A stretch of 64,000 nucleotides of DNA, taken from Schmidtea polychroa. Taxonomy: Eukaryota. The stretch is from assembly GCA_044892525.1 (NCBI GenBank), contig CM097885.1, positions 18,044,001 to 18,108,000 of the forward strand, in the 5' to 3' direction. This document shows, one piece after another, positions 1 to 45,450 of this stretch (positions are counted from its first letter, which is position 1; the number at the start of each line of letters is the position of its first letter). The position numbers were made by a program, and so were the translations under genes. A model generated the notes under the pieces. That model worked only from the letters and a program-made list of their open reading frames with translations. It was not told where the DNA came from and did not search any database.

Positions 1-274
1 AGAATTAAGAATACGGAAAGGCAGAAAGGGATCAAACCAAAGAGAAACCGAGGAAAAAGAGAGTCGGGAGAACTAAAGGAACAAAAGGTGAATATTGTTT
101 GTTGGCAAAGCATCAACGCCGAGCGGAGAATCGTATAAAACTTTGATTGGTAATTGTAGCGTGATAATAAATTGTGAACTTGTTGTTTCAATATACGTTG
201 GGTCGTTCATTGTTTTAATTTAAAGAACACCAGGAGTCAGAGAGAACCGACTAGAAATAACCCAAAACCCAACA
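1..274 (+). repeat. 3' part of the 5' LTR
   Basis: Lies just upstream of the PBS, ends in ...AACA, contains AATAAA at ~166; start is outside the window. Confidence 0.6.
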
Positions 275-281
275 TATATTC

Positions 282-300
282 TGGTGAGCCCGACGTGATT
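282..300 (+). promoter_or_regulatory. Primer binding site, tRNA-Trp type
   Basis: TGGTGAGCCCGACGTGATT differs by one base from the tRNA-Trp PBS TGGTGACCCCGACGTGATT. Confidence 0.85.
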
Positions 301-532
301 GAAAGTCGGAGGGAAATTATTGAAAGCTAGTGAAAAAGGAATTATAAAAAGAATTAGTACTGACGTGAGTGAAAGTCGGCTTAGAAGTTTGAAAATAGTG
401 TTAACGAGATTATAAAAGGCTATTATTGGGAGATTTAAAAGAAGTTGAAAAGTAATTTTAAATTATTGTTTAACGTTTGAAGTTTAGCTCAAAGTGAACC
501 GATACAACCTCAGAAGTCAGAAACAAGTCCAA

Positions 533-2458
533 ATGGCAAATGATAATGCTGTTATGCCTCTCAATAGAGAGATGATTGATTTCGCAAGTTGCCAGAAATT
601 ACCCGTCAATCAATATGGAGGAGACCCTGTTGAATTTGCAGATTTCATGGGAGATTATTATATGTACGCCTCAGCATACGGATGGACACAAGCCATTATG
701 GTTCAGAGATTCCCACTCTATCTGAAAGGTGCGGCAAGAGAAGCCTGGCAGCAAGTCGACAAACGAAATGTTGGCAATGATTGGACAAAATTGAAGGATG
801 CAATGGCACTGAAACTGGTTGGTGGAGATATCAAAAGAATCATGCGACAGAAATTTTATAATCGAGTTCAAGGTCCAGATGAATCGGTCAGTGAGTTTGC
901 TTATCATCTGACCACTTTAGCAGATAAAGCCTTTGAAGTTAAACCAGACCAAGCAGATATGGCCAAGCAGGTTAAAGAGCCATTAGAAGATCAGTTTATA
1001 ACCGGAGTCCACTCCGAAATCAAAAAAGCCCTATGTTATGTGGATTTTTCCAATTTTGATGAGCTCGTGAAGAAAGCCATGAAGATAGAGCTGAATTTAA
1101 AAAGTGCAAAAAGATCAGATGCTTTTGGAGTTAATGTGGAGAGACGTGAGCGATCAATTACGCCTGTGAGAGCACCATGGGATGAAAAGAAAATAAATCA
1201 GATCAGTAGTCCAATTTTGAGACCAAATAATAGATTTCAAGCCAGTAGATCAGCCATGAACGTACAATCAAATGGACAGGTAAATAATCCTCAATGCGAA
1301 CATTGCAAAAAGTCTGGACACTACTCAAATCAATGTTGGTTCAAATATGGGAAAAATCCCAGCCCTAACAAGAGATTCACAGAAAACAAGCGGATCAGCA
1401 GTGATGTCGAATGCTATCGATGCGGAAAGAAAGGGCATATTAGCAGAAACTGTTTTACCAGATCAAGGTCATCGTCAACGTCACCTTCACCACAAAGGGA
1501 CAAAGTGAATACAAATGGACAGATCCAATGTCATTCGTGCAAGGGATACGGCCACATGGCGCGATCATGCCCAAGGAACTCAGAAAGATTCAGCAGACCT
1601 ATCTTAAAGAAATCAATCAGATTCCAAGAAGATATGCCAAACACCAGTAACATGACATATGCTCAGAGAGAGGAATTTCAAGACAAAATGGAAAAGGAAT
1701 TTCGAGAAATGCGACAGAAGCTAAACAAACTAGTGGCGAAATTTGAATCAGATGAGGAAACTGAATCTCATATGATAATTGGAACCGTGTCAGAAGGTGA
1801 GGGAAAACCTGCCACGAAAGTGCGAAATATCGCTTCAGATGAGAATCCAACTGCACTGTTAGCCCGAGTTGAAAAATGGCTTGAGAAAATGGAAACTGAC
1901 AACTCCCAGTTGAAACGATGGATCGCAGAACTCAGTGTGATGTCACTAACCCAAAGCGAACTAAAGAGAGCCATAAATTTATGTGCAAAGTTATTCAAAG
2001 GAAACAGAGACGATGAGATACTTAAAGAAATGCAAAGGTTTGGCAAGGCTTTACGGTCAACAAGGGATTTAGCTGATATCATAGTGGAAACGACGGGACT
2101 TGATAATGTGAAGTGCCAATTCCGTTTAAACGCCTACGGACAAATCAGAGAGTTAAAGGAGCGAATACTGCGTCAATACAGTGGATGGCAAGTGCAATTA
2201 AAATTCGAAAATCGATGTCTGGAAGACGAAGAGTACTTAGTAGATTGCGGTCTGATACCAGGCTGGAAAAATAAAGTAAATGTTATTAATGCTGTTAATA
2301 CTTTGAATTCAGACAGACAAAATTGGGAAAAGATTCTAGCAGATTTACAAGATACCCTGTATGCAGGGAATAGAGATAAAATTAATGCGAGTATCGACTT
2401 CATAATGAGCATCGAAATGGATCGAGACATGAAAGAAGGGTTGTTTGAATGCACCTAA
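533..2458 (+). CDS. gag: Gag (capsid-like region, 3 CCHC zinc knuckles, coiled coil) with a C-terminal ubiquitin-like domain and the start of a Bcl-2-like domain
   Basis: YLKGAAREAW and RVQGPDESVSEFAYHL capsid motifs; CEHCKKSGHYSNQC, CYRCGKKGHISRNC, CHSCKGYGHMARSC; UBL-like IRELKERI..QLKFENRCLEDEEYLVDCGL; first ATG at 533. Confidence 0.9.
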   Translation: MANDNAVMPLNREMIDFASCQKLPVNQYGGDPVEFADFMGDYYMYASAYGWTQAIMVQRFPLYLKGAAREAWQQVDKRNVGNDWTKLKDAMALKLVGGDIKRIMRQKFYNRVQGPDESVSEFAYHLTTLADKAFEVKPDQADMAKQVKEPLEDQFITGVHSEIKKALCYVDFSNFDELVKKAMKIELNLKSAKRSDAFGVNVERRERSITPVRAPWDEKKINQISSPILRPNNRFQASRSAMNVQSNGQVNNPQCEHCKKSGHYSNQCWFKYGKNPSPNKRFTENKRISSDVECYRCGKKGHISRNCFTRSRSSSTSPSPQRDKVNTNGQIQCHSCKGYGHMARSCPRNSERFSRPILKKSIRFQEDMPNTSNMTYAQREEFQDKMEKEFREMRQKLNKLVAKFESDEETESHMIIGTVSEGEGKPATKVRNIASDENPTALLARVEKWLEKMETDNSQLKRWIAELSVMSLTQSELKRAINLCAKLFKGNRDDEILKEMQRFGKALRSTRDLADIIVETTGLDNVKCQFRLNAYGQIRELKERILRQYSGWQVQLKFENRCLEDEEYLVDCGLIPGWKNKVNVINAVNTLNSDRQNWEKILADLQDTLYAGNRDKINASIDFIMSIEMDRDMKEGLFECT

Positions 2459-5274
2459 CACGAACTGAGTTAGATCGAGATGTAATATTGACAGCGTTAG
2501 CCTATATAATATTGGAGATTGGTATTTATGGTTGTCTGGAAAATGACAGTTCAAAATCATTGATAAAGAAAGCTACGGAAATGACGAATAAATATTTGGC
2601 TAGGTGGATCGCAAACAATGGCGGATGGGAAAATTTGATACAAAAGGCTGAGAGCCCAAAAACCGAGACAGTGAGGAAAAAGGGAAAACTCGCATTTCCA
2701 TGGTTGATGATTTCTGTTATTATGTTATTGGGAATAATAAACACGACGAATTCCTTGGTGGCATACGACTGCTCCCAAACCGAAATGGGAAGAGTATATT
2801 CGTTGGTAAACGTAGCAGAGTGTTCGGATGCATATCCAGTAAAATTTAAAGTGACAAATCCAGTAAAATATTATGTATATCAAGAATCGGGATTTCGACG
2901 AGCAAAGGTGAGAGAGTGTACAGTGAAACGAACTACTTTTGTATTTTATTGTGGAAAATGGAGTCACTCATCGATGGTGAAAATGCAATCGATACCTAGA
3001 CCGATAGAAATAATTCCAGAGAATTGTTTGGTAGCCTTTGAAACAGGACAGTTGAAAATCAATGCAGATCTCAAACTACAAGCAAAGCTTAACCACAAAA
3101 TCCGTGAGACTGTAACCGTGCGAGGGATAATAAAGTCGAATGGTGATTGCCAAGGCGAGCCATACAAAGTAGACGATGCTATAATGGACAAAGCCGTGGT
3201 TGTGGAAGAGTACATGTCAGAATTAAGAGAATTTGATGGATCATTTGATGATGATACTGGTAAACTACAAACACATCCATTCTGCAACATGAAACAATCT
3301 AGCTGTCAGACAGGAGAATCAATCTTGGTGTACGATGTCGATACCAAAAAGTGCAATTTAGTGCAATTGAAGTCAATGAGTTTTAAAGAAATAACGGGAG
3401 AACAGATCAGGGAAAAGCCTGAGAAAATAAGAATGGATCCAGCAACGAGTACAACAACAAGAATCACACCTCTACGGATGAAAGATACTCCAACAGTGTT
3501 AATGTCAACCTCGGAGGAAGATGGGATGCGATTCCTGAGAAAAGAAACTAAAACAAAGTGTGGACAAAGTGTCTATGAGACAAATTATAAAGGTATATAT
3601 GTATCTCAGAAGATGATTACAGAGGCCCAAACAAACATACATGCCGGAGATATTAAGTTGACAAATTACTTTAATAACAAAATAGATTATTTATTTCACT
3701 TTGGTCAAAATACTGTTGAAAATGTGTACCGAGAAGTTATTATAAATGATTGCAATCTCAACAAAGAAATACTCCGAAATCGGATGGCAATGGCTATAAC
3801 CAATCCTAATTTGGTAGCACCAATGTTAATTGCAGAAAATGGAGTGTTCGCCAGAATTTTCGGTGAAGCACTATATAGCTATAAATGTAAAGCGGTACCA
3901 GTTAAACTGTCAAAGTATGACCAATGCACCAACGAGTTACCAGTGAATTTAAATGGAAAGTTGCGATTTATGGAGCCTGTAACACGAATCTTACTGGAAG
4001 AGGACGCGAAACCGAAAGTATTACAGTGTAATAGATTGTTAGCACCATTATACAGACTAACACCAGAATCTTGGATTGCATTACCAGATCATCGAGAAGT
4101 AAAGACACCGGAAAACTTAGAATTGACAGAATTACAATATCTGGTAAATTTTACGTCGTTAGAAAAATTGTCGCAAAGTGGAATTTACTCGAACGAAGAC
4201 ATTGAGGAAGCTCGCAGAAACTTGTTATTTCCATCAAAGAAAGAAAGAGTAATAATGGAAATGGTAGATACAATTCTCCCAAGCGGAAGTGGGAAGGTAA
4301 ATTATGAGTATTTGTTAACTCCAGATCATTACAAGAAAGCGACGTATAATACAATGAAAAAGATCTGGGGAAAGTTTATGTTCATTGGACAAGCATGTGC
4401 CGGATTGATTGGAATTTATGTAATATGTGTTGTAATCAAAGTAATAATATCGCAGGTCCTATCAACACACAGATTATATGCGATCACAGGTTGGTCGTGG
4501 AAACTAGTAATTGGTTGCATACCATTATTGGCTAGATTCTTCATTACTCATCATCAATATCAGGAGTTGGAGATACTCAAGGCTCGAATATTAAAGAAGA
4601 AAAAGGTGAGCTACGCGAGTACAACCCCTTCAAGGGACGAGAACAATGACAATGACAACGAGGGTGATAGTGCACCGTTATATGTTGACAATCAAGAACT
4701 AAGTGGAATGAATAAAGAAGCGTTAAGAACCTATCAAATCTTAAAAGAGCCACTGTTGAATGCGAGTAGCGTAGACACGTTTACAAAACTGTGTATACCA
4801 AAATCATTTATGCAACCAGCACCAGTGTATCCAGTTGATCGATTACGAGAGATGAAACCAGTGGAAAATATCGCATTACAATGTGAAGGAATGGTAGGAG
4901 AGAGAATCGAGCCTTCTAGCGCAGAGATCGAGAGAAAAAATATGTTAGGCTTACCATGCAACTACTCAATGATGACATTAACAAAAAGAGGAAAGCAACC
5001 CCGAATATTTATACAAATGAACAAACATAAAGTGGAAGCTTTAGTCGATTCGGGATCTAGTCACACAATAGTATCGGAAAATGTATTAAACGCGAAGGAA
5101 AACATGCGAATGAAGCCTACCGACGAAATAGTGAGGTCATTATCAAAAAATGAATTAAACATAATTGGACAACTTAACGTCATATTCCATATTGGAGATC
5201 GAATAATAGCGCACGATGCGCTCATAATGAAGGGAAGTCCAGTACGATGTCTGATCGGCATGGATATATTATAG
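2449..5274 (+). CDS. Bcl-2-like C-terminal half + TM/signal + envelope glycoprotein (chuvirus G / class III-like) + TM + aspartic protease
   Basis: BH2-like WIANNGGWENL (2605-2637); hydrophobic stretch 2689-2739 followed by LVAYDCS; Cys-rich ectodomain of ~540 aa; TM ~4375-4455 then LYAITGWSWKL; ALVDSGSSHTIVS and CLIGMDIL protease motifs. Confidence 0.85.
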   Translation: MHLTRTELDRDVILTALAYIILEIGIYGCLENDSSKSLIKKATEMTNKYLARWIANNGGWENLIQKAESPKTETVRKKGKLAFPWLMISVIMLLGIINTTNSLVAYDCSQTEMGRVYSLVNVAECSDAYPVKFKVTNPVKYYVYQESGFRRAKVRECTVKRTTFVFYCGKWSHSSMVKMQSIPRPIEIIPENCLVAFETGQLKINADLKLQAKLNHKIRETVTVRGIIKSNGDCQGEPYKVDDAIMDKAVVVEEYMSELREFDGSFDDDTGKLQTHPFCNMKQSSCQTGESILVYDVDTKKCNLVQLKSMSFKEITGEQIREKPEKIRMDPATSTTTRITPLRMKDTPTVLMSTSEEDGMRFLRKETKTKCGQSVYETNYKGIYVSQKMITEAQTNIHAGDIKLTNYFNNKIDYLFHFGQNTVENVYREVIINDCNLNKEILRNRMAMAITNPNLVAPMLIAENGVFARIFGEALYSYKCKAVPVKLSKYDQCTNELPVNLNGKLRFMEPVTRILLEEDAKPKVLQCNRLLAPLYRLTPESWIALPDHREVKTPENLELTELQYLVNFTSLEKLSQSGIYSNEDIEEARRNLLFPSKKERVIMEMVDTILPSGSGKVNYEYLLTPDHYKKATYNTMKKIWGKFMFIGQACAGLIGIYVICVVIKVIISQVLSTHRLYAITGWSWKLVIGCIPLLARFFITHHQYQELEILKARILKKKKVSYASTTPSRDENNDNDNEGDSAPLYVDNQELSGMNKEALRTYQILKEPLLNASSVDTFTKLCIPKSFMQPAPVYPVDRLREMKPVENIALQCEGMVGERIEPSSAEIERKNMLGLPCNYSMMTLTKRGKQPRIFIQMNKHKVEALVDSGSSHTIVSENVLNAKENMRMKPTDEIVRSLSKNELNIIGQLNVIFHIGDRIIAHDALIMKGSPVRCLIGMDIL

Positions 5275-8200
5275 CAGCTGGACGGAGTCTCACTTGATTT
5301 AAAGACAGGTAATTTGATAGCAGGAGAAACAGGAGAAATAATTCACAGGGCAGGTGAAGTGTTTGTGAATCAGACATTGACAATACCACCACAATCGGAG
5401 ATGGTATATTGTGCAAATACCATGAGTGTGGATAATGGTGATTTTATATTCGAACCAAATCAAACGCTAGTCGAAAAATATGATTTACCGATATGTGACG
5501 AAGTTGTCAAAGTGGAAAATCAGATAGTACCAGTCCATATAACGAATAGCAGCAAAAAACCGGTTCAGCTACACCCAAAAACAAAATTGGGAAAATTATC
5601 AAAAATGTCTATTGAAACAAATTGTAAAATACCAAGAAACGTCAAGGTGTATAAGGAGCCTGAAGTGGTAAGCAATGATTTAAATGAGATGCAGAAAAAG
5701 GAATTCACAAAACTGTTGAGGAAATACCGAGATATCTTTGCCAAACACGAATATGATTTGGGTTTAACCAATGTAATTGAGCATGAAATACCGTTATTAG
5801 ACGAAACTCCAATAAAAATAAAGCCATACAGAATCCCCTACGTTCATCAAGATGAAAGCGATAGACAGATTACAGCAATGAAGGAATTTGGAATAATTCG
5901 AGATAGCGCGTCACCATTCTCCTCATCAATAGTGATAGTTAAGAAAAAAGATGGAGACTTACGATTTTGCGTAGATTATCGGAAGCTAAATCAAGTTACA
6001 AGGAAAGACACTTATCCAATTCCGGTACCCCAAGAAATGTTTGATCAAATGGGAGAGGCACGATATTTCACAGTTATTGATTTAAACAAAGGGTACAATC
6101 AATTTAGAGTAAAAGAGGAAGATAGAGGAAAGACGGCGTTCTCGGATGGCAAAGGACTGTATGAGTTCAATGTGTTACCATTTGGAATAACAGGAGCCCC
6201 AGCTACATTCCAACGAGGAATGAATTATGTGTTACGAGGAATTCGACATGCATTGGTATATATCGACGATATAATAATATTTTCAAATGATTTTGAAGAA
6301 CATCTGAAGGATGTAGAAACTGTATTTAAACGGCTCAAAAGTGCAAAATTAAAAATCAAACCATCGAAATGTGAATGGGGCAAAGCAGAAGTGATTTATG
6401 TAGGACATATAATATCACGGCGAGGGTTACAAACTAATCCAGATAACATCAAAAAAGTGGAAGAGTACCCAGTACCAAAAGATGCCGATGAGGTTAGACA
6501 ATTTTTAGGTTTGGCGAGCTATTACAGAAAATTTATAAAAGATTTCTCTCATATCGCACAACCATTGAATACGTTACTAAAGAAAAACAATAAATTTATT
6601 TGGGGACAAATGCAACAAAACGCTTTCAATACATTAAAAGAGAAATTAGTAACAACTCCTATATTAAGATGTCCAGATTTTACAAAACAATTTATCTTGA
6701 TGACGGATGCAAGCAACGTTGCATTGGGTGCGGTATTGGGACAAAAATTTGAAGGTGAAAAGGACCATGTAATAGCATACGCAAGCAGATCATTGAGGCC
6801 TCACGAGAAAAACTACTCAACGATTGAAAAGGAAACGTTAGCGTTAGTGTATGGAATTACTACTTTTAGACAATATTTATTGGGCAGAAAATTTACTGTT
6901 TATACAGATCATAATCCATTACAGTGGTTAATGAAACACAGAGATTCAGCCAGTAAGTTAATACGATGGTCAATTGCCCTCCAAGAATACGACTTTGAGA
7001 TTAAATACCGGACAGGTAAAGCTAACGCGAATGCAGATGCAATGTCGAGAATCCCAGAAAATAATAGTGAAGGGACACCTGAAAAAGTGGAAGGCACTAT
7101 ATTCGCAGCAATCAAAGCTGTTAATGATATGTCTGAACTTCAAAATGATCAGGAAAACGATAGTGAATTAAAACAATTTATGGAACAAGCGGTCAAAATA
7201 AGAAAAGAACAAGACTGGAAACGACTTACAGATGCAAACAGCAAATATGTAATTCATAATGGAATACTTAAATGTTGGAAAAATGGGGAAGCATTAATTA
7301 TTATACCAGCCAAGCACAGAGATGCATTACTGATGCAGTATCATGATGGAGCGTTGGGAGGTCATTTGTCAACGCGCAAGACGCTATCAAGATTAAAATT
7401 GAAATACTTTTGGCCGACAATGGAACAAGACGTGAAAAATTGGAGTAACAGTTGCAAAGTATGCATCACCCGCAGAAATACTGGTAAAAAGATTAAAGTA
7501 CCATTAAAACCGATGCCAGTACCTGCAGCACCAATGGAGATGACGGCAATGGATATTCTGGGACCATTACCGGAAACAACAAAAGGAAACAAATACATTG
7601 TTGTTTTTTGTGACTACTTTACCAAATGGCCAGAAGCATACGCTATTCCAAACCAAAAAGCAGATACGATTGCTAGAATATTTGTGGAAAACATAATATT
7701 TCGCTATGGTACTCCAAAGAAATTGTTAACTGATCAAGGAAAGAACTTTCAAAGCGAGATGTTTAAATCAATCACAGACTTATTTGGAATTTGGAAATTG
7801 AATACGTCACCATATCATCCACAAACTGATGGATTGGTGGAACGATTTAATGGGACACTGATAAATATGATCTCATCATATGTGAATCGAAAACAGAAAG
7901 ATTGGGACGACTTCATAAAGCCGTGTCTGTTTGCCTACAGAAATGCAGTAAATCAAAGTACAGGAGAGACCCCTTTTTACTTGATGTATTTAAGGAAAAA
8001 TAATATGCCGATTGATCTCAAATTCCAACCACCAATTTCACAATATATGGAGATACCCGATTATAAAGCAGGTTTGACAATAAAGCACAACCAAGAGAAA
8101 TATAAAGAATCATACGATAAAAAAGCACATGCGCATGGCATAAAGATTGGAGATCTAGTATATCTGAACAGACCGGAACCTCTCAAAGGTTTATCGCCTA

Positions 8201-9081
8201 AATTGCAAAGACCATTTAAAGGACCCTACAAAGTGTGCGACACCACCGAAACCAATTTGAAGTTATTACCATTCAGGAGTAAAAAGGCTAACCCGATGAT
8301 TGTGCATGCAAATCGATGTAAACTAGTGCCAGAGGAAGATGAATCTAGATACCCCTTAAGATCCAAGCAGAATAAAGTAACGGGTCAAACAAAATTGAAA
8401 CAGAAATTCACGAAAAATCCAACACCAGTCAGCTACATCAATAAGATATTATATGTAGCAATAATGCTGATGTTAGTAACAGTTGCGAGCGGCAAAAAGA
8501 TTGATTTACCATATGCGGTAAACAAAATCCGAGGAATGGAGAAAATACATATATATTCCACTCTAACAAATATAGTATGGAGCTGTAAATGCGAGATCGC
8601 AGACCAAATAGAAATTATTAATTTACTAGCCAATACGGCACCAGTGGTAGAACTGAATTATGATAAAGATATAGTTGCGGTACGAAAGTTAAAGCCAAAT
8701 TACAAATACCAATGGCTGTTGAGACAGAACATGTCAAAGTGGTACACGCAAATTCCGATAGAAGTGCACACAAAAGAGATGCGAAACTTGATCGAGATAG
8801 AACCAGAGATAAACGGAATCAATATATATTGGAAGCCAGTGGACTTGGTGAAAGTGCGACTCACATTTCAAGGGTTAAATGTCGACACCCTTAACTCGCG
8901 AAAATCATTTATCCGCTACGAGAAATTGAAAATGAATCAAAATTATTCAGTTAATGCAAACTACTACGAGAACATATGCCTCGAAAATGGAACGGTAGTG
9001 AGAAACCAATGGTCACGATTTAAGAGTGAGACCCAGTCTATCTATCTCAGAGACGAGTCAAATCGTATAACCCTTATATAG
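5275..9081 (+). CDS. pol: Pol (RT, RNase H, integrase with GPY/F) fused to a signal peptide and FN3-like ectodomain; in frame with the upstream ORF across one TAG
   Basis: LRFCVDYRKLN, LPFG, YIDD (6259-6270), TDAS, HHCC zinc finger, D-D-E (MDIL, TDQG, VERFN), PFKGPY; hydrophobic ILYVAIMLMLVTVASG after the integrase. Confidence 0.95.
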   Translation, partial: QLDGVSLDLKTGNLIAGETGEIIHRAGEVFVNQTLTIPPQSEMVYCANTMSVDNGDFIFEPNQTLVEKYDLPICDEVVKVENQIVPVHITNSSKKPVQLHPKTKLGKLSKMSIETNCKIPRNVKVYKEPEVVSNDLNEMQKKEFTKLLRKYRDIFAKHEYDLGLTNVIEHEIPLLDETPIKIKPYRIPYVHQDESDRQITAMKEFGIIRDSASPFSSSIVIVKKKDGDLRFCVDYRKLNQVTRKDTYPIPVPQEMFDQMGEARYFTVIDLNKGYNQFRVKEEDRGKTAFSDGKGLYEFNVLPFGITGAPATFQRGMNYVLRGIRHALVYIDDIIIFSNDFEEHLKDVETVFKRLKSAKLKIKPSKCEWGKAEVIYVGHIISRRGLQTNPDNIKKVEEYPVPKDADEVRQFLGLASYYRKFIKDFSHIAQPLNTLLKKNNKFIWGQMQQNAFNTLKEKLVTTPILRCPDFTKQFILMTDASNVALGAVLGQKFEGEKDHVIAYASRSLRPHEKNYSTIEKETLALVYGITTFRQYLLGRKFTVYTDHNPLQWLMKHRDSASKLIRWSIALQEYDFEIKYRTGKANANADAMSRIPENNSEGTPEKVEGTIFAAIKAVNDMSELQNDQENDSELKQFMEQAVKIRKEQDWKRLTDANSKYVIHNGILKCWKNGEALIIIPAKHRDALLMQYHDGALGGHLSTRKTLSRLKLKYFWPTMEQDVKNWSNSCKVCITRRNTGKKIKVPLKPMPVPAAPMEMTAMDILGPLPETTKGNKYIVVFCDYFTKWPEAYAIPNQKADTIARIFVENIIFRYGTPKKLLTDQGKNFQSEMFKSITDLFGIWKLNTSPYHPQTDGLVERFNGTLINMISSYVNRKQKDWDDFIKPCLFAYRNAVNQSTGETPFYLMYLRKNNMPIDLKFQPPISQYMEIPDYKAGLTIKHNQEKYKESYDKKAHAHGIKIGDLVYLNRPEPLKGLSPKLQRPFKGPYKVCDTTETNLKLLPFRSKKANPMIVHANRCKLVPEEDESRYPLRSKQNKVTGQTKLKQKFTKNPTPVSYINKILYVAIMLMLVTVASGKKIDLPYAVNKIRGMEKIHIYSTLTNIVWSCKCEIADQIEIINLLANTAPVVELNYDKDIVAVRKLKPNYKYQWLLRQNMSKWYTQIPIEVHTKEMRNLIEIEPEINGINIYWKPVDLVKVRLTFQGLNVDTLNSRKSFIRYEKLKMNQNYSVNANYYENICLENGTVVRNQWSRFKSETQSIYLRDESNRITLI

Positions 9082-9099
9082 AAACGATATATAGTATAA

Positions 9100-9570
9100 A
9101 CGATATATAGAAAATCAGGAAATGATGAAAGAGTTGTTATTATCTACAAACAAAAAACCCTGACTATATTAGATGCCGGTAATCATTTTTTTACACTTTA
9201 CACTTCTGATTTAGAGACGGCATGGGAATTAACAGTTAAATATCAGCGATGGATAACCGATCCAGGCAGATGGCAAACAGTTTTCGTGGAAGTCAAGACA
9301 ATCAATGAATCGAAACGAAAATCATATACAACCACATCACCTTTCCAATTACCGACCCAAGAGACGACAAAACCTAACTCAAACAAACTAATGATGATAA
9401 ATTCGGATTTGACAGTCAACTATTGTGAATATCTCATTTACATTTTAATAACAGGTTTTCTCATCTTATCAATAACATTCATAATCATCACCATCTTGAT
9501 ATGTGTAAAAGAGAGACAACTAACTATCCTTCAACCACCATCATATTCATATTATGAGACAAGACTATAA
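9100..9570 (+). pseudogene. In-frame continuation of pol: third FN3-like repeat, S/T stalk, TM, cytoplasmic PPSY and C-terminal ETRL
   Basis: Same frame as pol, open 9100-9570; separated only by two stops inside a local AAACGATATATAG duplication (9079-9110). Confidence 0.7.
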
Positions 9571-9752
9571 ATTGTGATCTGCATGAATAGTGTATAAAAA
9601 AAAATATATATTACATTTATATTAACAATGTGCATGTTTTATAAGTACCATAGGATGAACTGTGTAATTTGTTTGAGATTCGAAGCGAGGTGTTGATGCT
9701 TTGCGAATAAAGAGTGATACAAAAAAAAATAACTATCATTTAATTTCAGAGA

Positions 9753-9998
9753 ATGCAAGAAGCCTCGGAGATGACATGCAAAGAGTGTAAAACAAGTACG
9801 CAAGAACTAAAACAAAAGTTTCGTAGCATGCAGGGCAGAATAACAGATTTGGAGGAAGAAAACTTCCGTCTGAAAAGGCGGTTGGACCGTTTGGAAATCT
9901 TATTGTTTCAACACGAAGCCGATTTCGCGATGTTTCGAATGAGAGTAGAAGAAATGGAGGAATCGGAAGATGATGGTGAGATAAATCAATTAGACTAA
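9753..9998 (+). CDS. Small coiled-coil (leucine-zipper-like) accessory protein with acidic tail
   Basis: Heptad pattern ITDLEEENFRLKRRLDRLE, CxxC, acceptor-like TTTCAG just before the ATG, AATAAA right after the stop. Confidence 0.55.
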   Translation: MQEASEMTCKECKTSTQELKQKFRSMQGRITDLEEENFRLKRRLDRLEILLFQHEADFAMFRMRVEEMEESEDDGEINQLD

Positions 9999-10451
9999 AA
10001 AAATAAATTATTTAAACGGACCCTGTTGGTGTTTTTTCGTCCTCGAGAAAAAAAAATAATAGTTAAATAATTATAAGTAAATTAACAAATAATCAAATGA
10101 ATAAACAAATTGATATAAATAAATAAGTAAAAAAGTGATAAATTAAATGAATGAATAATAGATAAAAATGAACAAAGTTAAACGAGCAAATAGAATAACT
10201 CAAATAAATGTTGCAAATAATGAAATGACTACCTTAAATGAGCATTAGAAATAAATAATATGGCTGATTAGTAATTAATGAATTAGCATAACTATATAGC
10301 AATGGGTAACCCACTGGGCGAGAGAACAAAATTTTAAATAAGTAAGGAATAATTTAGTAGTAACAAAGACTAATCGCGAAGAGGGACACAATTACCCCAC
10401 CCTTTCTAGCATAAATTAAAAACAAAGGTATGCTGAACATTTATTCAAAGT

Positions 10452-11190
10452 TTATTCGTCATCAGAGTCCAACAGAACGGGACTTTGGATGCCACAGTCC
10501 CATTCCCTGCGTACATTGCAAGGCGGGCGTCGTTCAAACCTACTGCCTGTATCCACACAGGCAAAGGTACGTTTCAATCCCTTTCGACGCGGTGGTAAAG
10601 GGACCCTGAAAAAGAAATTAAAAAAACCTGTTAGTATGGCAGTTAAATAACCATTGCATAACATCGAGATGTTCAAACTTAGGTTCTGGCACAGCCTAAA
10701 ATAGTAAGGGTTGAAAAGAAAAAACGAAATAAATACTATGTAAAACTCCGTACCATGGCGCCCTCGACAAATAATTAGTGCAGGGAAGTAATTGATTTTA
10801 AGAATTACGTAATAAATTAATAAGTATAAATACGGCTAAAATTGTCAGAAAAATACGAGTAGCTGTAATTAGAGGTTTGCTTTTAGTATAAATACAAAAT
10901 CAAAAATCAAAAATATATGACCCAAAACATGAGTGTAGGTAGTTGCATAAACAAATTAACGAATTAAAATTAAAAAGTAAATAAGTTAATTTAATAAGCA
11001 TCAATAAGTTAATTTAATATGCAACACGAGCACTTGCAATCACCGGGGTTTGGCTACCCTGGACAGCGATTGCAAGTGTTCGGTTACTATGAGGGTAGTT
11101 GAGGACAGCATGGTAAAAAGAATCACAAATACAAAAAATAACAAAAGATAGTTAATCACTTACGTCCATAGTAATTGAGGGATGGCGTTA
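10452..11190 (-). CDS. Predicted spliced antisense accessory gene (~67 aa) in the retroelement 3' region
   Basis: TATATAA 11290-11296; GT-AG introns 11191-11242, 10696-11163 (or 10696-10753) and 10606-10651 give an open frame; two AATAAA at and after the stop. Confidence 0.5.
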
Positions 11191-11297
11191 CTAAAATTCA
11201 AAGAAAAATATGAAAAAGAAAAATAAAATATAAAATGCTTACTTCAAGATTGGCAAGACAAAACTAACGAAAAGTGGTAAAGCAGAAACTTATATAG

Positions 11298-11435
11298 AAC
11301 GCTTATCAGTACAGACTACGTTGACAAACTACAGAGTAATTAATTAGAAAGCTTATCAGCACGGCTACGTAAGAAACCACAGGGTAATTAATTATAGAGC
11401 CTATCGGTATCGGCTACGTCAAAAACCGCAGGATA
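11298..11435. repeat. Three ~49 bp imperfect tandem repeats (GCTTATCAG..CTACGT)
   Basis: Direct inspection; GATA-like and ACGT cores upstream of the antisense TATA box. Confidence 0.75.
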
Positions 11436-12629
11436 AGAAAAAATTCATTCGGAATATTAATGTTCATCGCAGATACCTTATCAGGCTGAGTAAACAGTCG
11501 GTCGGTGCGGGGGAGATTAACTTTTTACCATGCTGCGAGCGAAATAAACCAACAAGTTATTAATAACAAAAAAAAAATTATTTTTAAATCATAATATTAA
11601 TAATAATAGTAATAATGATGAAAGGAAAAAAAAAATAATAAAATAAATAAATTACCTTGCAACTGAGAATAAATTAGGCATATATTCTGCACATAAAAAT
11701 CGATTTCCGCAATCAATAAAATAAAAAAAATTTTATCAGTGGTTTATCAAAATAAAAGCACCAGAAAATTCGAGTCACAATGGCTTCCAAAATTCAATAT
11801 GCGCTCCCTAGAAATATTTAAAACCAACCAATTCTGTTATTGGGTTGAGCTAATTTTTGTTCCCGGGTCGATAATAAAATTTGCGGTTGTGTCTGATAAG
11901 TAGAATGACTGACCAATCAGATTGAAATACATTCACCATTGGGATGAATTTTGAAGAAAATTGACACACACATACACGCAAGTGCACTCATTTATAGATA
12001 CACACAAAGAACCCCGATTAATGTACAAGTACCGTGAACTACTTAATCGTAAAGACACACACACAGACAGACACACAAGCATGATTCCAACAAAATATAA
12101 TTTAATTTAAAAATTTTTTTGAAACAACTAAATAACTTTTTATGATTGCAATTTTTTTATGAATTAATTATTCAAATCAAACTTTATTTTCATCTCAGAG
12201 AATTAAAATTTTTATGAGAATTTACGTGGATAATAAAATTAAAACAACTTTTGAATGTTAAATGAATATGTAGACCACATAATTTAGCTAATTGAATGTC
12301 TTTAATTTGGCCATTTTGCTTCAATTTCCACTTTTGTATAAAGAAATTATATTAAATCAATTTCACCTTTAATACTTTTTCAGTGTTCTGTACCTCAGAA
12401 TACTCAAATGAAATACTGTACGACACCATTTTTGAGTAATTCACATTTTGCGATTAAATAGTTTCATTTATTTTTAATTACCTCCTAATGAAGATTTTTA
12501 AGTAAAATAATTTTCACTATGTTTTCAATTTTTTTTAAAATAATAATCTAATTAAAATATTTAATATGAATTAATCATAAAACTTAAATTTTTGAAGAAG
12601 TTTATGTTTCACGTAGATCATCAATTCTT

Positions 12630-12777
12630 AACATTCCTCAATCATTGCTTCTAACTGCATAGCATTCTGGAACCATATATTCATATCTCTAATAAATTCA
12701 TCATTTATTCTGAGAGAGGTTTTAACTACAATAACCTTACCAGACTGTCTTTGGTCTACTCGACCATTTGAAAGATC
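12630..12777 (-). pseudogene. Isolated exon fragment resembling a PCI-domain C-terminus (CSN7-like)
   Basis: After a TTTCAG acceptor: DLSNGRVDQRQSGKVIVVKTSLRINDEFIRDMNIWFQNAMQLEAMIEE. Confidence 0.35.
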
Positions 12778-12874
12778 CTGAAAATGTCTAATATCAGATA
12801 ATATCTTTAACTGTGTTTCGGATCAGAATTAAATAACTGTATCCTGAAAAAAAAAAGGATCAGATAATATCCTA

Positions 12875-12964
12875 AAAATCAATGCCAACAGTAGATACGA
12901 AAGCTGACGTAAAACTATCACCAGCACAACGAAATAAAAATGAAGTTTTCCCAACTGAATTATT
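12875..12964 (-). pseudogene. Rab3-like GTPase exon fragment (P-loop and switch I)
   Basis: [30 protein letters not shown] closely matches Rab3 [26 protein letters not shown]. Confidence 0.85.
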
Positions 12965-13707
12965 TTTAGCATACATTGTTGAACGTCTGGAATAAAATTG
13001 GTGCGTGGTCCGCAAACGGTTAAATTGATTTCTTTCTTTTCTTCACAATGACTTGGTGAAACAGCTAAAAATTTACATCGATATAAATATTATATAACCA
13101 AATTCGGGTGCCATTACAAAATTACCTAAAACAATCGGTCGCCGATAGTTGACTAACAAAATATATGAGGCATAATCAAGTTAAATATTATTTAATAGTA
13201 TATATTACATAAAAGTTTTTATAATCTTGTAAATGAAACCAAAAAAAAAATATTTCTTGCCAAATATTGATTCGATTGATAACATTGATCACATTTGGAT
13301 ATTCAGTCATATTATTTTTACACAAAATATATAAACCTAAATTCAAGTTGCAAAATTAAAATTGAAATCATGTTTCACTACCATTCAAAATACTATCTTG
13401 ATCAATGAACTCTTGGTAATATAAATAATATAAGCCTTGTTCGGTTCGGAACGAAATCAATTTTTCAACATCACTGATAAACTAATTACCAAAAACGGAA
13501 CACGATTTTCCAATAATTAAAATTTTAAACATAATCAGAGTTTTGATCTTGCTTTCTTGATTTTGGAATCGTAATAATCTGATCAGAACTAAATAACTGT
13601 ACTGTCAATCTGAGGGAAATTTCAAATACATATGGGAAATGGCTCAACGAATCACACGAAGAGGATTTATTCGTGCTCACAATTTTTCATTGGACTATAT
13701 TTGCAAA

Positions 13708-14929
13708 ATGATTTGTGGTAAATCTGAATTATGTATATTTGATAGACCATCGCCCCAGGCTGTAATAAAATTTGGGGCTTTTGAGGAAGTTTTTCCTATG
13801 AATTCAATTACCGATAGTAGAAATGATATAGAGTTTTATATTAATGGTTCGCAAACTGAATATTTAGATTTGAACGATACTTTATTGACTGTTCAGATCA
13901 AGGTTGTAGATAAAGATAGAAAAGTTTTGGATGCCAATGCAGATGTAATACCGAACAATTTCCTGTTTCATACTCTTTTTAAATGCAGTGTTGGGATTTA
14001 ATAATATCAAGATTGAGGGTGGAAATAATACATTCATTCACAAGGCATTAATAGAAACTATTTTAAATTACAATTCCGATACTAAAAATACATGCCTTAC
14101 TCCTATGGGTTATGCAGCAGCAGATGATGAAAGAAAAAAGTGGGTTAAAGGCTCAAAGGTTTTCACCATGTGCTCATCATTACAACTCGATTTTATGGAT
14201 CAACCGAAATATTTACTACCGGGAGTTAATGTACATATTAGACTGAAAAGGTCTGATTCTGTATTATCTCTTACTAGTGCAAATGGTGCACCAATATGTC
14301 AATTAGTTGATGCAAAATTATTGGTGAGAAGAGTTAGAGTAGACCCCTTAGTATTAGCTGGTCATCAATTGGGTCTTAATTCAAAACATGCAATTTATCC
14401 ATTAAAAACAAAGGAAATTGTACAATTCGCTATTGCTAAAGGTGCTTCATCATTCTATAAAGAACAAATATTTGGTGACAGAAGAATGCCTAATTTTATT
14501 CTGATAACATTTCAAAGTGAAGCACAATATAATGGATCATATATTGCGTCCAGCTCAATTTTCAAAAACTTTGGTGTTACATCATTGACTTTGTCGAAAA
14601 ATACTGATTATAGAGAAACATATATTCAAGATTTCGAAAATGACAATTACTGTGCGACATATATGCAGAGTATTGTTAGAAATCTGGGTTATTTAGATAA
14701 AAATTTGAATTGTGGAATAACTCTAGAAGAATTTAAAAGCAAATACCCATTTTTTACATTTGTTTCAGCCCCTGATTTTGATTTAAATCAGAGTCAATTA
14801 CCTCAAAATGGAAATTTACGACTGGATATAAAGTTTGCAAAAGCTATTACTGAACCAGTACATGTTACAATATATGGAGTATTTGAAAATGAAATTCAAA
14901 TTACTGCAAATAGAACTGTGTTGGTATAA
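13708..14929 (+). pseudogene. Maverick/Polinton (adintovirus-like) major capsid protein, frameshifted at ~13982
   Basis: KSELCIF N-terminus, IEFYING..EYLDLNDTLL, QPKYLLPGVNVHIRLKR, GNLRLDIKFAK, VFENEIQI. Confidence 0.85.
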
Positions 14930-14956
14930 ATGTATATTGAAACACAAAAAGTTGTC

Positions 14957-15340
14957 ATGGAGTAAGTTTTTTTATACTGTTTAATTTATTAAAGTAGTTC
15001 TGTTCAGGTTAATCGAATTGGAAAACAAATATTGGGAAATGAATTTGTTGGAGTTTTTCCTCTTGATAAAATTCCATATTTGAGCAATAATCAAGCAATA
15101 ATCGTCAATACTCAATCGTCTCATCTTGGTGGAGAACATTGGATAGCTATATATATGAAACCTGGTAATATATTCGTGTTCGATCCTATGGGTTTTTATT
15201 ACCCAGCTTTGTTGATATCAAAACTACAAACAATGGGGAAACCTATCGTGTATAATAAAACTATGTTTCAAAATCCATTGACCCAAACATGTGGTCAACA
15301 TTGTTTAGCTTGGTTGTTGTATAAAAAATTTGATGTTTAA
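14957..15340 (+). CDS. Polinton adenain-like cysteine protease
   Basis: FVGVFPLD, IVNT..GEHW, FDPMG, Q...CGQHC; ATG at 14957 is in frame if 14962-14994 is spliced. Confidence 0.85.
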
Positions 15341-16400: not shown

Positions 16401-17356
16401 TATTTATTTATTTTTATATATTTATTTTTATATATTTATTTTTTAAAAACCTTTTAAATTTCTTAAATACTTTTAAACATTTTCTTAAAAACTTATTTAT
16501 AAAAACTTATTATGAAAATGAAGAAAATATTATGATGAAATTGAAAATGTTATGATGACTAAAATGATGAAAATATTATGAGGAAGAAATGATGAAAATA
16601 TTATGATGAAGAAAATGATGAAAATATTATGAAAATGTTTAAAAAGTTGCGATGTACTTTTTTTAATAAACTATGATTGTATATTTATTATCTATATTAT
16701 TTCGATTAGTTTTTAAAAATCAAAATTTTAAAAGTGAAAAAAACCTGACAGTGACAGATTAATAACGTGGGTAAGAATAAAAAAATTAATTCGCTCGCCG
16801 TGAACAAACAACTTAAACTTCTGGTCACTGTAAGCAAAAATAAATCTTGACTATCATTATTTTAGAAAAATCAAATAAAAGTTAAAACTTCAAAAACTGC
16901 ACTTTTTTCTTGAAAATTTGGAAAATATTGTGAAAACGGAAAGACGATAGATTTACATCATCCGGGTCATAGTTAACCAGGAGACGGGAGACTCTCGGTA
17001 AAAACGGGAGAGTTGGCAAGCCTAATATTAATAGTAAAATTGAAATTTCATAAAATTGAAAAGCTCATTAATTGAATTTTAATTAGGGTTCAAATTTTCC
17101 AAAAAAATATTCTTTTATATCAAAAAATGTACACAACATTTAAATTTCACTGACACGACTTTTTATTTAGTTTGAAATTCAAAATTCATTAATTTCTCAA
17201 TTTAAAAATTTTTATGTTCAATATTTTAAAATGTTTGAACTATTTTGACGTAAGTTGTTTTACGAACTCATTAAAATACTATATAACTTAGAAGTTGATC
17301 TACAATTTCAAAATTTTGTATATCAAGGTCACGATTTTTATTGATTAATAAGAAAA

Positions 17357-19114
17357 ATGTCAATTATTTATCAATCGAAAATGCATCAAATGTGCCATAT
17401 TGATCAAGAATTAAAAGATACAATAAAAAAAATTTCTTTTCCATTAATATTTGGTACAATTGGTTATGCGGGATATTGTTACTATCGTAGCAATCGTAAC
17501 AATGCTCAGATTAAAGAAAAGCAAAAGGAATTAAGTCATAAGAAAAGTGAACTGTTGAAAAAACTAAAAGATCTTGGAACTCCAATAAATAATATGGATA
17601 AGATTACGAATTTGAAATTGAGTGATTTACATGAAGCTATTGAAAAAGGAGAATTTACATCACTTGATGTTCTTCAAGCATACCAAGCAAAAGCTCTAAT
17701 AATGGATAAGGAATATAATTTTATAACTGATTTGAATCCCAATGCAGAATTAGATATTTCTCGTGAATCAGTCGACAAGAAAATCATTAACATTCCAATA
17801 AGTGTGAAAGAATGTTTTGTGTTGAAACATTGTGATTGCACTAATGGAATGCTAGATCAAGTTTCTAATCCAGCAAAGGAAGATGAGATTATAATTCAAA
17901 TTTTGAAGTTACACGGATTTATTCCATTTCTTAAAACCAATCTCAGTCAAGGTTGTCTTGCTATAGAATCTTCAAATCCTATATATGGGGAAACGTTAAA
18001 TCCATTCAATAAAGGTCGAACAAGTGGAGGCAGTTCAGGCGGAGAGGGAGCTATATTAGGATGTGGTGCATCGTTGATAGGATTAGGAAGTGACAGTGGA
18101 GGAAGTATTCGTATTCCTTCTCATTATTGTGGGATATATGGATTCAAACCCAGTTCACCAAGGATTAGTAAACGCGATTCCAAATGTATGTTCCCATATC
18201 CAAATTTCGTTTGTGAATCCTATGGGCCAATGGCGCGTCATATTGATGATTTAGTTGCTGTTTATAAAATGATGACAAACAGAGATTCGTTTCAATTGGA
18301 TCCATATTGCCCTCCTATATGCTTTAATACTAATGTTTTCGAAGACAAACGGCCATTAAAAATAGGTTATTATATTCATCTAGGGGGCAGTCAGGTGACT
18401 CCAGTCCCAGCTGTAGAACGGGCGGTTTTGATGGCAAAAAAGGCATTAGAATCAGCTGGACACAAATTGGTGGAATTCCAAATACCAGAGGTTGATTCTG
18501 TAGTATTGGAATTATTTTTGAGAAGTCTATTAAATGACGGTGGTGAAGGTTTCAAAAAAGAATGTTTGAAAAATAATCCCGTTGATCACTGCATTAGAAA
18601 TGTTGTTACAATATTAAAAATACCAAATTTGCTTAAAAAATGTTTAAGTTTTCTACTTTATCCATTCGATAAGAGCTCGAGTATTTTATTGAATGCAACC
18701 ATGGCGATACCTTCCGTTTATAAACTATGGCAATTTAAAGATAGGGTTATTGATTATCGCGAAAAGGTTTTAGTCCACTGGCAAAATGAGAAATTGGATG
18801 GTTTAATTTGTCCGACATTGCCAATATGTGCTCCACCATTACACAAATCTCAAGAGCTGGAAAGTGTTACTACATATACATCAATCTACAATTTACTGGA
18901 TTATCCAGCGGGATCTACACCTGTTACCACCGTAAATCAAAATGACATTGATAGCCTCCTGGCAAATTACCCAAGAGATAGTAAAATCCACCGTAAGATT
19001 CTGGAATATCAAAAGGATTCTATTGGTATGCCCATAGGAGTACAAAGCGTCTCAATGATGTGGCGAGAGGAGGTATGCCTTAGAATTATGAAAGACATCG
19101 CAACAAATATCTAA
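17357..19114 (+). CDS. FAAH: Fatty acid amide hydrolase-like amidase, intronless
   Basis: ISVKEC (catalytic Lys), GGSSGGEGA, GSDSGGSIRIPS, GMPIGVQ, N-terminal hydrophobic segment. Confidence 0.92.
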   Translation: MSIIYQSKMHQMCHIDQELKDTIKKISFPLIFGTIGYAGYCYYRSNRNNAQIKEKQKELSHKKSELLKKLKDLGTPINNMDKITNLKLSDLHEAIEKGEFTSLDVLQAYQAKALIMDKEYNFITDLNPNAELDISRESVDKKIINIPISVKECFVLKHCDCTNGMLDQVSNPAKEDEIIIQILKLHGFIPFLKTNLSQGCLAIESSNPIYGETLNPFNKGRTSGGSSGGEGAILGCGASLIGLGSDSGGSIRIPSHYCGIYGFKPSSPRISKRDSKCMFPYPNFVCESYGPMARHIDDLVAVYKMMTNRDSFQLDPYCPPICFNTNVFEDKRPLKIGYYIHLGGSQVTPVPAVERAVLMAKKALESAGHKLVEFQIPEVDSVVLELFLRSLLNDGGEGFKKECLKNNPVDHCIRNVVTILKIPNLLKKCLSFLLYPFDKSSSILLNATMAIPSVYKLWQFKDRVIDYREKVLVHWQNEKLDGLICPTLPICAPPLHKSQELESVTTYTSIYNLLDYPAGSTPVTTVNQNDIDSLLANYPRDSKIHRKILEYQKDSIGMPIGVQSVSMMWREEVCLRIMKDIATNI

Positions 19115-21828: not shown

Positions 21829-21860
21829 TATAAAGTGATGATTTCTTGGTAGCAGCATTT

Positions 21861-24537: not shown

Positions 24538-24680
24538 AATAATAATAATGATAATAATAATAATAATAATGACAATAATAACAACAATAATAACAACAAT
24601 AATAACAACAATAATAATAATTATTATTATTATAACAATAATAATTAAGAATAACAACTTAAAAAATAATAATAACACTC
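24533..24680. repeat. (AAT/AAC)n microsatellite
   Basis: Direct inspection. Confidence 0.9.
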
Positions 24681-25072: not shown

Positions 25073-26014
25073 TTCTACCCTTTCTTGAATTCTAACATAA
25101 ATTATAAAGCGCAACTTCTACTTAATTTTTAACACACAGGTCAATAGAACTGTTTTTTTTGTTATTTTTATATTATAAATGGTTTTTAAACAGGGGTATA
25201 ATAAATGTTTCTAAGGCGCAATTTTTCTTATTTAATTTATTTTACGTTAATATTTTAAGTGTGACATTGAATTTTATTAATATTACAAATTATATTTCAT
25301 GCTTTTAATAAAATTATCTGTAAAAATATTTCTTAAAATTTCGTCAGAATAGAATTTTCTCTTGTTTTTAAAAATAAATTAAACTAAATTAAAATTTACT
25401 AAATTAAAACTGGTTATTTCTTTATATATGTTGAAAATGTTAATATAGTTAACGAGGTAAAGATACATTTTCAATTTAAACCGCACGCAGAATTCTCTAA
25501 ATAAAGAATAGCATTCACTCACATTTAGGAACATTTAACCAAAGAACTAAATCAAATAGCGGTCCTCATCCTCAATTAAAATCATAAAAATTCTTTTACT
25601 TTCATAAAGGAGTAAAATTAAATTAAATTAAAAAATTAAAGTTTATTGAAACAATTCGTTCTGATAATAATTTTTAATATATTTGATAACGATTCCTTCG
25701 CCTTAGAATAGCTTGATACCCTGCCTGTCTATAATAAATGAGAATGATTAAATTTAATAGAATTAATCTTATCTTAGATCCTTTCAACTCTAGCCCTTGA
25801 GATTTCAACGATATCTTTTTCATGTCTGATTGGAAATTATGAAGCACAACGGGGTCAATAAAAATAGATAACAATATTAAGTTTATTAATTGATTAATTT
25901 AAATTAATTAGTAAGTTATTATTCCTCATTGGATCTATTATAAAACCTTAATAGAATATTCAAAATGAATATGCTTATTTCCCCATTGTGCTTCACCTTT
26001 CCTCCAAACTTGAA

Positions 26015-29666: not shown

Positions 29667-29825
<159 letters not shown>

Positions 29826-45417: not shown

Positions 45418-45450
45418 GTATAAAGTGATGATTTCTTGGTAGCAGCATTT

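Follow-up and report, generated by a model that had tools for sequence, protein, structure and literature searches.

A defective copy of a Burro-related Ty3/gypsy element in Schmidtea polychroa and the probable single-frame polyprotein of its family

The stretch of DNA analysed here (the window) comprises 64,000 nucleotides of Schmidtea polychroa (GenBank assembly GCA_044892525.1, contig CM097885.1, positions 18,044,001 to 18,108,000, forward strand). An initial annotation, made from its letters, had described positions 533-9570 as a retrovirus-like Gypsy element encoding one giant membrane polyprotein. Window positions 1-12,094 are a defective, 3'-incomplete copy of such an element, which cannot make the polyprotein. 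Very probably, the window holds the wreck of a very abundant, recently active Ty3/gypsy element that is a relative of Burro, belongs to the same family as Smed_errantivirus_2 and encodes a single-frame polyprotein. The present analysis makes modest additions: the nature of the breaks in this copy, a 17-18-kb Burro relative that keeps a single 3,334-codon frame, and a conserved post-integrase membrane module common to several families.

Open frames, domains and breaks of the window copy

Four consecutive stop-to-stop frames were found on the forward strand, at 488-2458, 2449-5274, 5275-9081 and 9100-9570; the gag ATG, the first in frame 1, lies at position 533. Frame 2 is in the -1 phase relative to frame 1 and overlaps it by 10 nt. 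Frames 2 and 3 are parted by a single in-frame TAG (5272-5274), and frames 3 and 4 have the same phase, with two in-frame stops (9079-9081 and 9097-9099) within a short local duplication between them. Both the positions of the open reading frames (ORFs) and the break sites are as the initial annotation had placed them.

Pfam searches of frame 1 returned Retrotrans_gag (E = 7.5e-10) and zf-CCHC (E = 1.5e-10, three stretches). Frame 2 gave a weak Bcl-2 tail (E = 0.11), the Monjiviricetes_fusion glycoprotein family (PF24664; E = 9.2e-95) and an aspartyl protease (E = 3.6e-7). RVT_1 (E = 1.4e-33), RNase H (E = 2.9e-40), an integrase zinc-binding domain (E = 5.6e-19) and an integrase core (E = 7.7e-12) were matched in frame 3, and no convincing Pfam family was found for frame 4 (9100-9570). 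The domain order protease (PR), reverse transcriptase (RT), RNase H (RH), integrase (IN), the upstream Gag with CCHC knuckles and the family of the integrase zinc-binding domain fit Ty3/gypsy elements (Metaviridae), as far as sequence matches can place them. The features of the copy are as follows.

1-274 (+): 3' end of the 5' long terminal repeat (LTR); the LTR is about 1,065 bp long, starts 789 nt upstream of the window and has a terminal CA
282-299 (+): sequence like a primer-binding site, with an initial TGG, 7 nt past the LTR end (read from the sequence)
533-2453 (+): Gag (capsid-like, three CCHC knuckles), coiled coil and, at about 2108-2296, the first of the ubiquitin-like domains, as far as the deletion scar (Pfam)
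2453-2456 (+): scar of an 892-nt internal deletion that changes the frame (BLAST against three copies; run contigs)
2455-2637 (+): C-terminal half of a Bcl-2-like domain, with the core hydrophobic helix and a BH2-like W..GGW motif (Pfam, profile and fold match)
2689-2754 (+): hydrophobic segment 1, a Bcl-2-type tail anchor that may also serve as Env signal/anchor (Kyte-Doolittle peak 1.99; conserved in 5/5 aligned families)
2755-4461 (+): Env ectodomain and membrane anchor (anchor at 4375-4461), mononegavirus/chuvirus type (Pfam PF24664)
4993-5330 (+): retroviral-type aspartic protease, cut by the TAG at 5272-5274 (Pfam protease families)
5938-7863 (+): reverse transcriptase, RNase H and integrase (zinc-binding domain and core) (Pfam)
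8064-8070 (+): position at which 39 nt are missing in frame from the integrase C-terminal region (against other copies)
8446-9570 (+): post-integrase membrane module, with hydrophobic segment 3 (8446-8493), an all-beta ectodomain of about 300 aa, segment 4 (9430-9507) and a short tail
9571-12094 (+): 3' non-coding part of the element, in which TRF detects a 48-nt tandem repeat (11295-11436); family homology ends at about 12,094

The window has a single instance of a stretch of about 48 nt (290-337) in the 5' untranslated leader, of which some other copies or contigs have two. The G+C content of the window ranges from 24 to 40%, and the element is its most G+C-rich and most A-skewed part.

The copy was compared with others in a 781-Mb genome assembly of four chromosome-sized contigs, the largest of which carries the window, and with contigs from four public runs, whose status as RNA is a guess. 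BLAST against three other copies showed that 892 nt are missing from the window exactly at 2453. With this segment the copy lost the N-terminal half of its Bcl-2-like domain as well as an acidic linker and the second ubiquitin-like domain; the Bcl-2 signal of the window is therefore that of the C-terminal, BH2-bearing half only. At the same site, 894 extra letters are present in contigs of runs X4 and X5, and contigs of the two further runs end there loosely. The frame change at about 2455 had been put down to a 1-nt shift; it is instead the consequence of the 892-nt deletion.

The other breaks were characterized in the same manner. The TAG at 5272-5274 is a sense codon in another copy. In the integrase C-terminal region, 39 nt are absent in frame at 8064-8070 compared with other copies, and contigs of all four public runs carry 32 extra letters there. 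The small rearranged stretch with the two stops (9077-9099) was found five times in the genome, every time within the tandem array described below. The deletion junction at 2453 and the TAG variant each occur once genome-wide.

An alternative is that the breaks are programmed recoding, with a -1 frameshift at about 2455 and read-through of the TAG at 5272 as in retroviral gag-pol, so that the window copy would be functional as it stands. The phase and the 10-nt overlap of frames 1 and 2 would suit such a frameshift, and read-through of TAG is known from gammaretroviruses. However, the overlap contains no slippery heptamer, the TAG falls inside the protease domain, and other copies are continuous at both sites, with the additional 892 nt at the first; the single occurrence of the junction and of the TAG variant is a further argument against it. 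We regard recoding as extremely improbable. The breaks are read as private decay of this locus, since the junction, the TAG and the rearranged variant are confined to it and the longer forms are found in other copies and in contigs.

The ends of the copy were examined as well. Positions 1-278 match the LTR end of another copy (96.4% identity), and the 789 nt upstream of the window match the same LTR (96.3%). No second match to the LTR was found anywhere in the 64-kb window, and no direct repeats that could form an LTR pair were found within 1-14,000; the window lacks such a pair because the 5' LTR runs off its edge and the 3' LTR is absent. Identity to other copies is 99.5-99.7% over 2453-8070, 97-98% over 8064-10122 and 94% beyond. 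BLAST matches over the 3' part (94-98% identity) end at 11,490-12,094, and the other copies continue for about 2.8 kb plus a 3' LTR beyond the point where homology of the window ends (about 12,094).

Intact copies and published relatives

The genome was searched with frame 2, and 48 places of 5,085 first-look candidates were scored. In all 47 scored copies other than that of the window, the match to the Bcl2-env-PR frame covers residues 3-941 and has 99% identity. No stop interrupts the match in 40 of the 48; the open frame measures 3,334 aa in eight and at least 3,000 aa in 13. Three copies were read in 10-kb pieces. One of the copies, read directly, has 3,334 codons without a stop, made up of 1,392 in one locus, 1,941 in the adjacent one and a single codon that bridges their border. 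This frame runs from 15 codons before the gag ATG, from which it counts 3,319 codons, to the end of the last membrane module. The stop-free frame in an intact copy makes the single giant ORF real for the family. The initial annotation had proposed one ORF of about 3000 aa; its continuity, with the envelope between gag and protease and in frame with pol, was borne out by the family copies, and its length has to be corrected to 3,334 codons from stop to stop.

The intact frame encodes, in order, Gag with three knuckles, a coiled coil, two ubiquitin-like domains, a Bcl-2-like domain, a hydrophobic anchor and the fusion glycoprotein with its own anchor. PR, RT, RNase H and IN follow, and then a second signal/anchor, an all-beta ectodomain, a last anchor and a short tail. 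Two copies are enclosed by LTR pairs, one of 1,064 bp and the other of 1,066 bp, with 99.5% identity within each pair; the elements measure 16.8 and 17.8 kb. One copy has TG...CA LTR ends and a 4-bp ATAG repeat on both flanks (by eye).

The position of env is unusual for Ty3/gypsy and the window copy is rearranged, with an identity to other copies that varies along its length; the env/Bcl-2 block might thus be a nested or chimeric insertion in this single Gypsy copy. Against this, the block stands at the same place in all 47 other scored copies. The order is also kept in Burro1-like copies (23-48% identical), in P0008 and in P0009, and has been published for the phylum in the available literature. 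In P0008 (3,181 aa), which is 35% identical over 95% of the query, CCHC and ubiquitin-like/UBX matches are followed by env, PR, RT, RH, IN and the membrane module; in P0009 (2,974 aa), env precedes PR, and IN is followed by a weak match to Ig_3. We therefore give almost no credence to an insertion confined to one copy, and the block is treated as an integral part of the element, as the initial annotation had held.

One of the nearest described systems is Burro1/GYPSM1, a giant Gypsy element of Schmidtea mediterranea (Jurka, 2007, and Grohme et al., 2018, both cited in PMC6431247). According to the available text of that article (Arkhipova & Yushenova, 2019, PMC6431247), Burro1 exceeds 30 kb and has a 4,873-aa ORF1 with a three-knuckle Gag, MATH_TRAF_C, Ubi2/SUMO-like, BCL-2, env, PR, dUTPase-like and RT-RH-IN parts, together with BIR and ankyrin motifs. 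Its env lies in frame between BCL2 and PR and matches mononegavirus fusion glycoproteins, and BCL2-like motifs are also given for Burro-2, -3 and -4 (PMC6431247, citing Grohme et al., 2018). In planarians, Burro RNA rises when smedwi-2 is knocked down (PMC8532177). On this account the present element shares with Burro1 the three-knuckle Gag, the Ubi2/SUMO-like and BCL2-like parts, the in-frame env between BCL2 and PR, and RT-RH-IN. It differs from Burro1 in size (17-18 kb and 3,334 codons), and no MATH_TRAF_C, BIR, ankyrin or dUTPase-like motif was found in an intact copy by Pfam at E <= 0.1. Compared with a Burro1-like locus in the genome searched here, the amino-acid identity is 23% for gag, 30-36% for Bcl2/env, 33% for PR and 48% for RT-IN; the post-integrase module does not align to that locus. 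Given its length of 17-18 kb and the lack of the extra motifs of Burro1, we take the element to be a smaller Burro relative and not Burro1 itself.

BIR domains occur at at least 150 places genome-wide, nearly all in open frames of 392-393 aa (L043-L045). One such frame is adjacent to a Burro1-like polyprotein (L046-L050), and the BIR frames have the appearance of a repeated accessory gene carried by the giant elements.

Errantiviruses with the order GAG-ENV-POL and a class III ENV have been described in Platyhelminthes, Nematoda and Bryozoa (Chary & Hayashi, eLife 2026, PMC13524379). Six S. mediterranea elements are listed in the available supplement of that article, among them Smed_errantivirus_2, with 215 copies and an 'HSV/gB-type' class III ENV. 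Its order is that of the present element, and an excerpt of its env differs from the window Env at 7 of 251 positions (compared by eye). GAG, ENV and POL are treated there as ORFs. The window copy is a broken one. In the text available, the terms 'bcl', 'single ORF', 'in-frame', 'fused' and 'immunoglobulin' have no occurrence, and a ubiquitin-like or post-integrase membrane part is not mentioned. The nematode and bryozoan elements likewise have a class III env upstream of pol (PMC13524379, citing Sacco et al., 2022); they are set apart by the description that they do not form one clade with the flatworm ones.

Captures of chuvirus glycoproteins by LTR elements of mosquitoes, including Anakin, are also known (Dezordi et al., 2020, PMC7642597; mentioned in PMC12440569). 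As far as these sources are available, Anakin shares with the present element an envelope of the same broad viral source (Monjiviricetes/Jingchuvirales type) and its capture by an LTR element. In Anakin and its like, env reportedly keeps the usual downstream position on BEL/Pao or Gypsy backbones, and Bcl-2 or ubiquitin-like parts are said to be absent.

The in-frame env between gag and pol and the BCL2-like and ubiquitin/SUMO-like layout are thus already known from the Burro (2019) and flatworm errantivirus (2026) reports, as far as their available text goes. The initial annotation had asked for its novelty to be checked against Burro elements; because the layout has been reported, nothing of a new kind is contributed by the window. 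Taken by itself, the layout is remarkable in placing a negative-strand-RNA-virus envelope, a putative cell-death regulator and ubiquitin-like domains in one polyprotein that would thread the membrane; the element has thousands of young copies in an animal used as a model of regeneration.

Domains and proposed expression of the polyprotein

By its Pfam match, the envelope is of the mononegavirus/chuvirus type (PF24664, 318.4 bits against a cut-off of 27). Among free-standing proteins, the closest relative found was a glycoprotein of 633 aa, encoded on a 12.5-kb contig and 27% identical over 94% of the query, and a word-based homolog search of the env part at near lengths returned three proteins only. 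The ectodomain has 14 cysteines. No relevant match was obtained against sequences of solved structures, and no match was obtained by tblastn of env against phage records.

The Bcl-2 fold of the element domain is supported by profile matches, a structure model and fold matches. In an intact copy the Pfam Bcl-2 match has E = 0.011 (16.7 bits, cut-off 31.4). A profile of the region from five families (four of this genome and P0008) matches Bcl-xL/Bcl-2 with E = 1.5e-4, over Bcl-xL residues 124-194 (the BH1-BH2 part); among the profile matches listed, all 60 are Bcl-2-family chains. An AlphaFold2 model from a shallow alignment (pLDDT 66.9, pTM 0.63) was compared with known structures using Foldseek, and all listed matches belong to the Bcl-2 family (BAK, Bcl-2, Mcl-1, BOK, Bcl-xL and a poxvirus homologue; probability 1.00, TM 0.44-0.63). 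The domain is followed by a hydrophobic tail, as in family members with a C-terminal membrane anchor. The presence of a Bcl-2 module, proposed in the initial annotation, is accordingly upheld at the level of the modelled fold. Its description as anti-apoptotic is an assumption, the model matching pro-apoptotic BAK as well as Bcl-2 and Mcl-1.

Two ubiquitin-like domains are present in intact copies. Their assignment had been part of the initial annotation and is weakly supported by sequence matches: the Pfam ubiquitin match in an intact copy (E = 4.3e-4, 20.4 bits) is below the cut-off of 25.4, and a profile of four sequences matches di-ubiquitin with E = 0.0022 in two stretches, the other rows (E = 0.08-0.8) all being ubiquitin, ISG15 or ubiquilin. 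No C-terminal GG was seen in these domains. The assignment is in line with the Ubi2/SUMO-like motif published for Burro1.

The post-integrase module consists of a hydrophobic segment, about 300 residues predicted to be all-beta, a second hydrophobic segment and a short tail. Several families of this genome carry it within open frames of 3,329-3,437 aa; it also occurs in P0008 and as a separately predicted 410-aa protein (P0012), and it was aligned with six relatives. An exhaustive HMMER search of the module against 1.84 billion representatives gave one match, P0012 (E = 4.1e-9). The dN/dS ratio is 0.17 at dS 1.4 between two families and 0.18-0.30 in three further pairs; these four were the pairs that gave values out of ten, the other six being saturated.

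The fold of this module was less clear. No Pfam family was matched in any of seven module sequences at E up to 1. The AlphaFold2 model is all-beta (pLDDT 49.6), and Foldseek with this low-confidence model gave TM values of about 0.1, including chance rows to unrelated beta-rich proteins; the best Z of a VIA fold search was 6.7, below the stated background of the tool. The nearest neighbours by language model are FN3-type single-pass membrane proteins (score 0.86), which serves as a lead only. FN3, the class named in the initial annotation, is thus possible, but it was not recovered by the Pfam, Foldseek and VIA searches. The Ig-like region of P0009 was considered as a homologue of the module and rejected: hhalign of the module profile matched only 55 columns, in the integrase C-terminal part, and the region is not counted as homologous for this reason.

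Four N-glycosylation sequons are present in the module ectodomain. The polyprotein ends in ETRL, and its tail (9508-9567) carries PPSY. Five of the seven aligned modules end in [S/T]-x-[V/L] (ETRL, ETTV, ETFV twice and STLV), one ends in VLL and one ends early; PPSY was found in the tail of this family only among the seven. We take the [S/T]-x-[V/L] end to resemble a class I PDZ-binding motif and PPSY to be a PPxY budding-type motif. The tails of rabies virus G end in QTRL or ETRL and bind PDZ proteins.

These sequence comparisons show that the module, a predicted type-I membrane protein, is conserved and shared by several families and by P0008, a relative from another source. A post-integrase module with a PDZ-binding-like end was not found described in the available text of the Burro and flatworm errantivirus papers (PMC6431247, PMC13524379), and we rate it as a lead. 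A more specific proposal is put forward tentatively, as less probable than not, namely that the module is an undescribed second surface glycoprotein of type I, re-inserted into the endoplasmic reticulum (ER) after the integrase and kept under purifying selection, with a PDZ-binding-like tail and, in this family, a PPxY motif. If this is true, these elements would combine reverse transcription with a multi-pass polyprotein of flavivirus type and with two envelope proteins, of which one would fuse membranes while the other would attach or manipulate host polarity/trafficking proteins.

Two loci of another family of the same genome (L038 and L039) are internally deleted, with a pre-protease stretch joined in frame to the hydrophobic segment of the module. 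The loci are separate and their junction is identical; they may represent a propagated deletion derivative.

A Kyte-Doolittle scan of the 3,334 residues gave, besides the buried core helix of the Bcl-2-like domain, hydrophobic segments at 1030-1056, 1593-1627, 2958-2982 and 3288-3323. Small residues precede the ends of segments 1 and 3 and would suit signal peptidase. The proposal made in the initial annotation, of a polyprotein that threads the membrane several times, is consistent with these four segments, which stand where it needs them; the topology itself is inferred. Unspliced RNA would be translated into one polyprotein crossing the ER membrane four times. The cytosolic parts would be Gag with the ubiquitin-like and Bcl-2-like domains, then the enzymes (protease, RT, RNase H and integrase), carried on the Env tail, and finally the tail of the last ectodomain; Env and that ectodomain would face the ER lumen. 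The chain would be cut by host signal peptidase and, at cytosolic sites, by the element's own protease. In flaviviruses and pestiviruses, a single ER-threaded polyprotein with luminal glycoproteins and cytosolic enzymes is cut by signal peptidase and a viral protease. The logic of the present polyprotein would be similar if the proposed topology is correct; this is an analogy without homology, the backbone of the element being that of a reverse-transcribing LTR element.

Retroviruses and errantiviruses express env by splicing, and equimolar Gag, Env and Pol would be an unusual stoichiometry. The long frame could therefore be real while Env and the post-integrase module are made mainly from spliced subgenomic RNAs, the full polyprotein being minor or non-productive. 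No joints with intron-like ends were seen in the contigs of the four public runs. Contigs of two runs (9,754 and 10,761 nt) span the element with gaps only at copy differences, and the sole large skip (5527 to 8424, in one contig of one run) has other letters in between and no intron-like joint. Moreover, all parts are kept in one frame across families that are 20-50% identical, which is hard to explain without through-translation. Expression mainly by splicing is considered unlikely, and translation of the whole frame into one polyprotein is preferred.

Several points weigh against the interpretation given here. The identity with Smed_errantivirus_2 is drawn from the 251-residue env excerpt compared by eye, and a TAG within the match is flagged, inconsistently, for one of the eight copies with a 3,334-aa frame. 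The Pfam scores of the ubiquitin-like and Bcl-2-like domains are below the curated cut-offs. Single-polyprotein translation, the membrane topology and the cleavage sites are deduced from the letters of the sequence, the hydropathy values being from a simple Kyte-Doolittle window, not from a predictor trained on topology. Beyond the Env anchor lies a further stretch of moderate hydrophobicity, below the threshold; were it to cross the membrane, the enzymes would end up on the side opposite to that proposed. Env might also be made from a spliced message, the RNA status of the run contigs being a guess.

The surrounding tandem array and its genes

The remainder of the window is occupied by repeated DNA that includes the 3' part of the element.

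7947-64000 (+): tandem array with a 23.6-kb unit, starting inside the integrase region and comprising the element 3' part and unrelated DNA (self-BLAST)

In the self-BLAST, 7947-28287 equals 31541-51878 at 99.85% identity, and 25620-32900 equals 56750-64000. The units start at 7947, 31541 and 62641, head to tail; with two more beyond the window there are at least five on the chromosome. The second unit contains a 7.5-kb internal duplication (49210-56749 equals 56750-64000 and onwards). Either a segmental tandem duplication or an expansion in the assembly seems to have produced the array after the element had landed and been truncated; the array is not part of the element.

An intronless amidase ORF of 589 aa is present at 17345-19114 and 40932-42701 (+), doubled by the duplication of the tandem unit. 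It has an N-terminal hydrophobic stretch and a full amidase-signature domain (Pfam Amidase, E = 1.5e-85), and it looks like a fatty-acid amide hydrolase. An Ets ORF with a C-terminal Ets domain (E = 7.1e-15) and an asparagine-rich N-terminal part is found on the reverse strand at 26080-27264, 49670-50854 and 57354-58394, its three occurrences being due to the duplications.

A Penelope-like remnant (21859-24539, again at 45449-48129) contains an RT-like ORF without a Pfam match (22727-23290) and a GIY-YIG ORF (23958-24299); inverted repeats of 700 nt, complementary at 97%, enclose it. A virus-like DNA element has ORFs at 13597-15340 and 29982-31543, which include an adenovirus-type cysteine protease (Peptidase_C5, E = 1.7e-6), preceded by frames of 134 and 326 aa without a credible family; this element is presumably Maverick/Polinton-like, which is a guess. 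A 147-nt stretch of it (13688-13834) recurs at 31397-31543, exactly at the tandem-unit junction. Long microsatellite tracts rich in AT dinucleotides are present inside each tandem unit (29603-30008 and 60747-61108).

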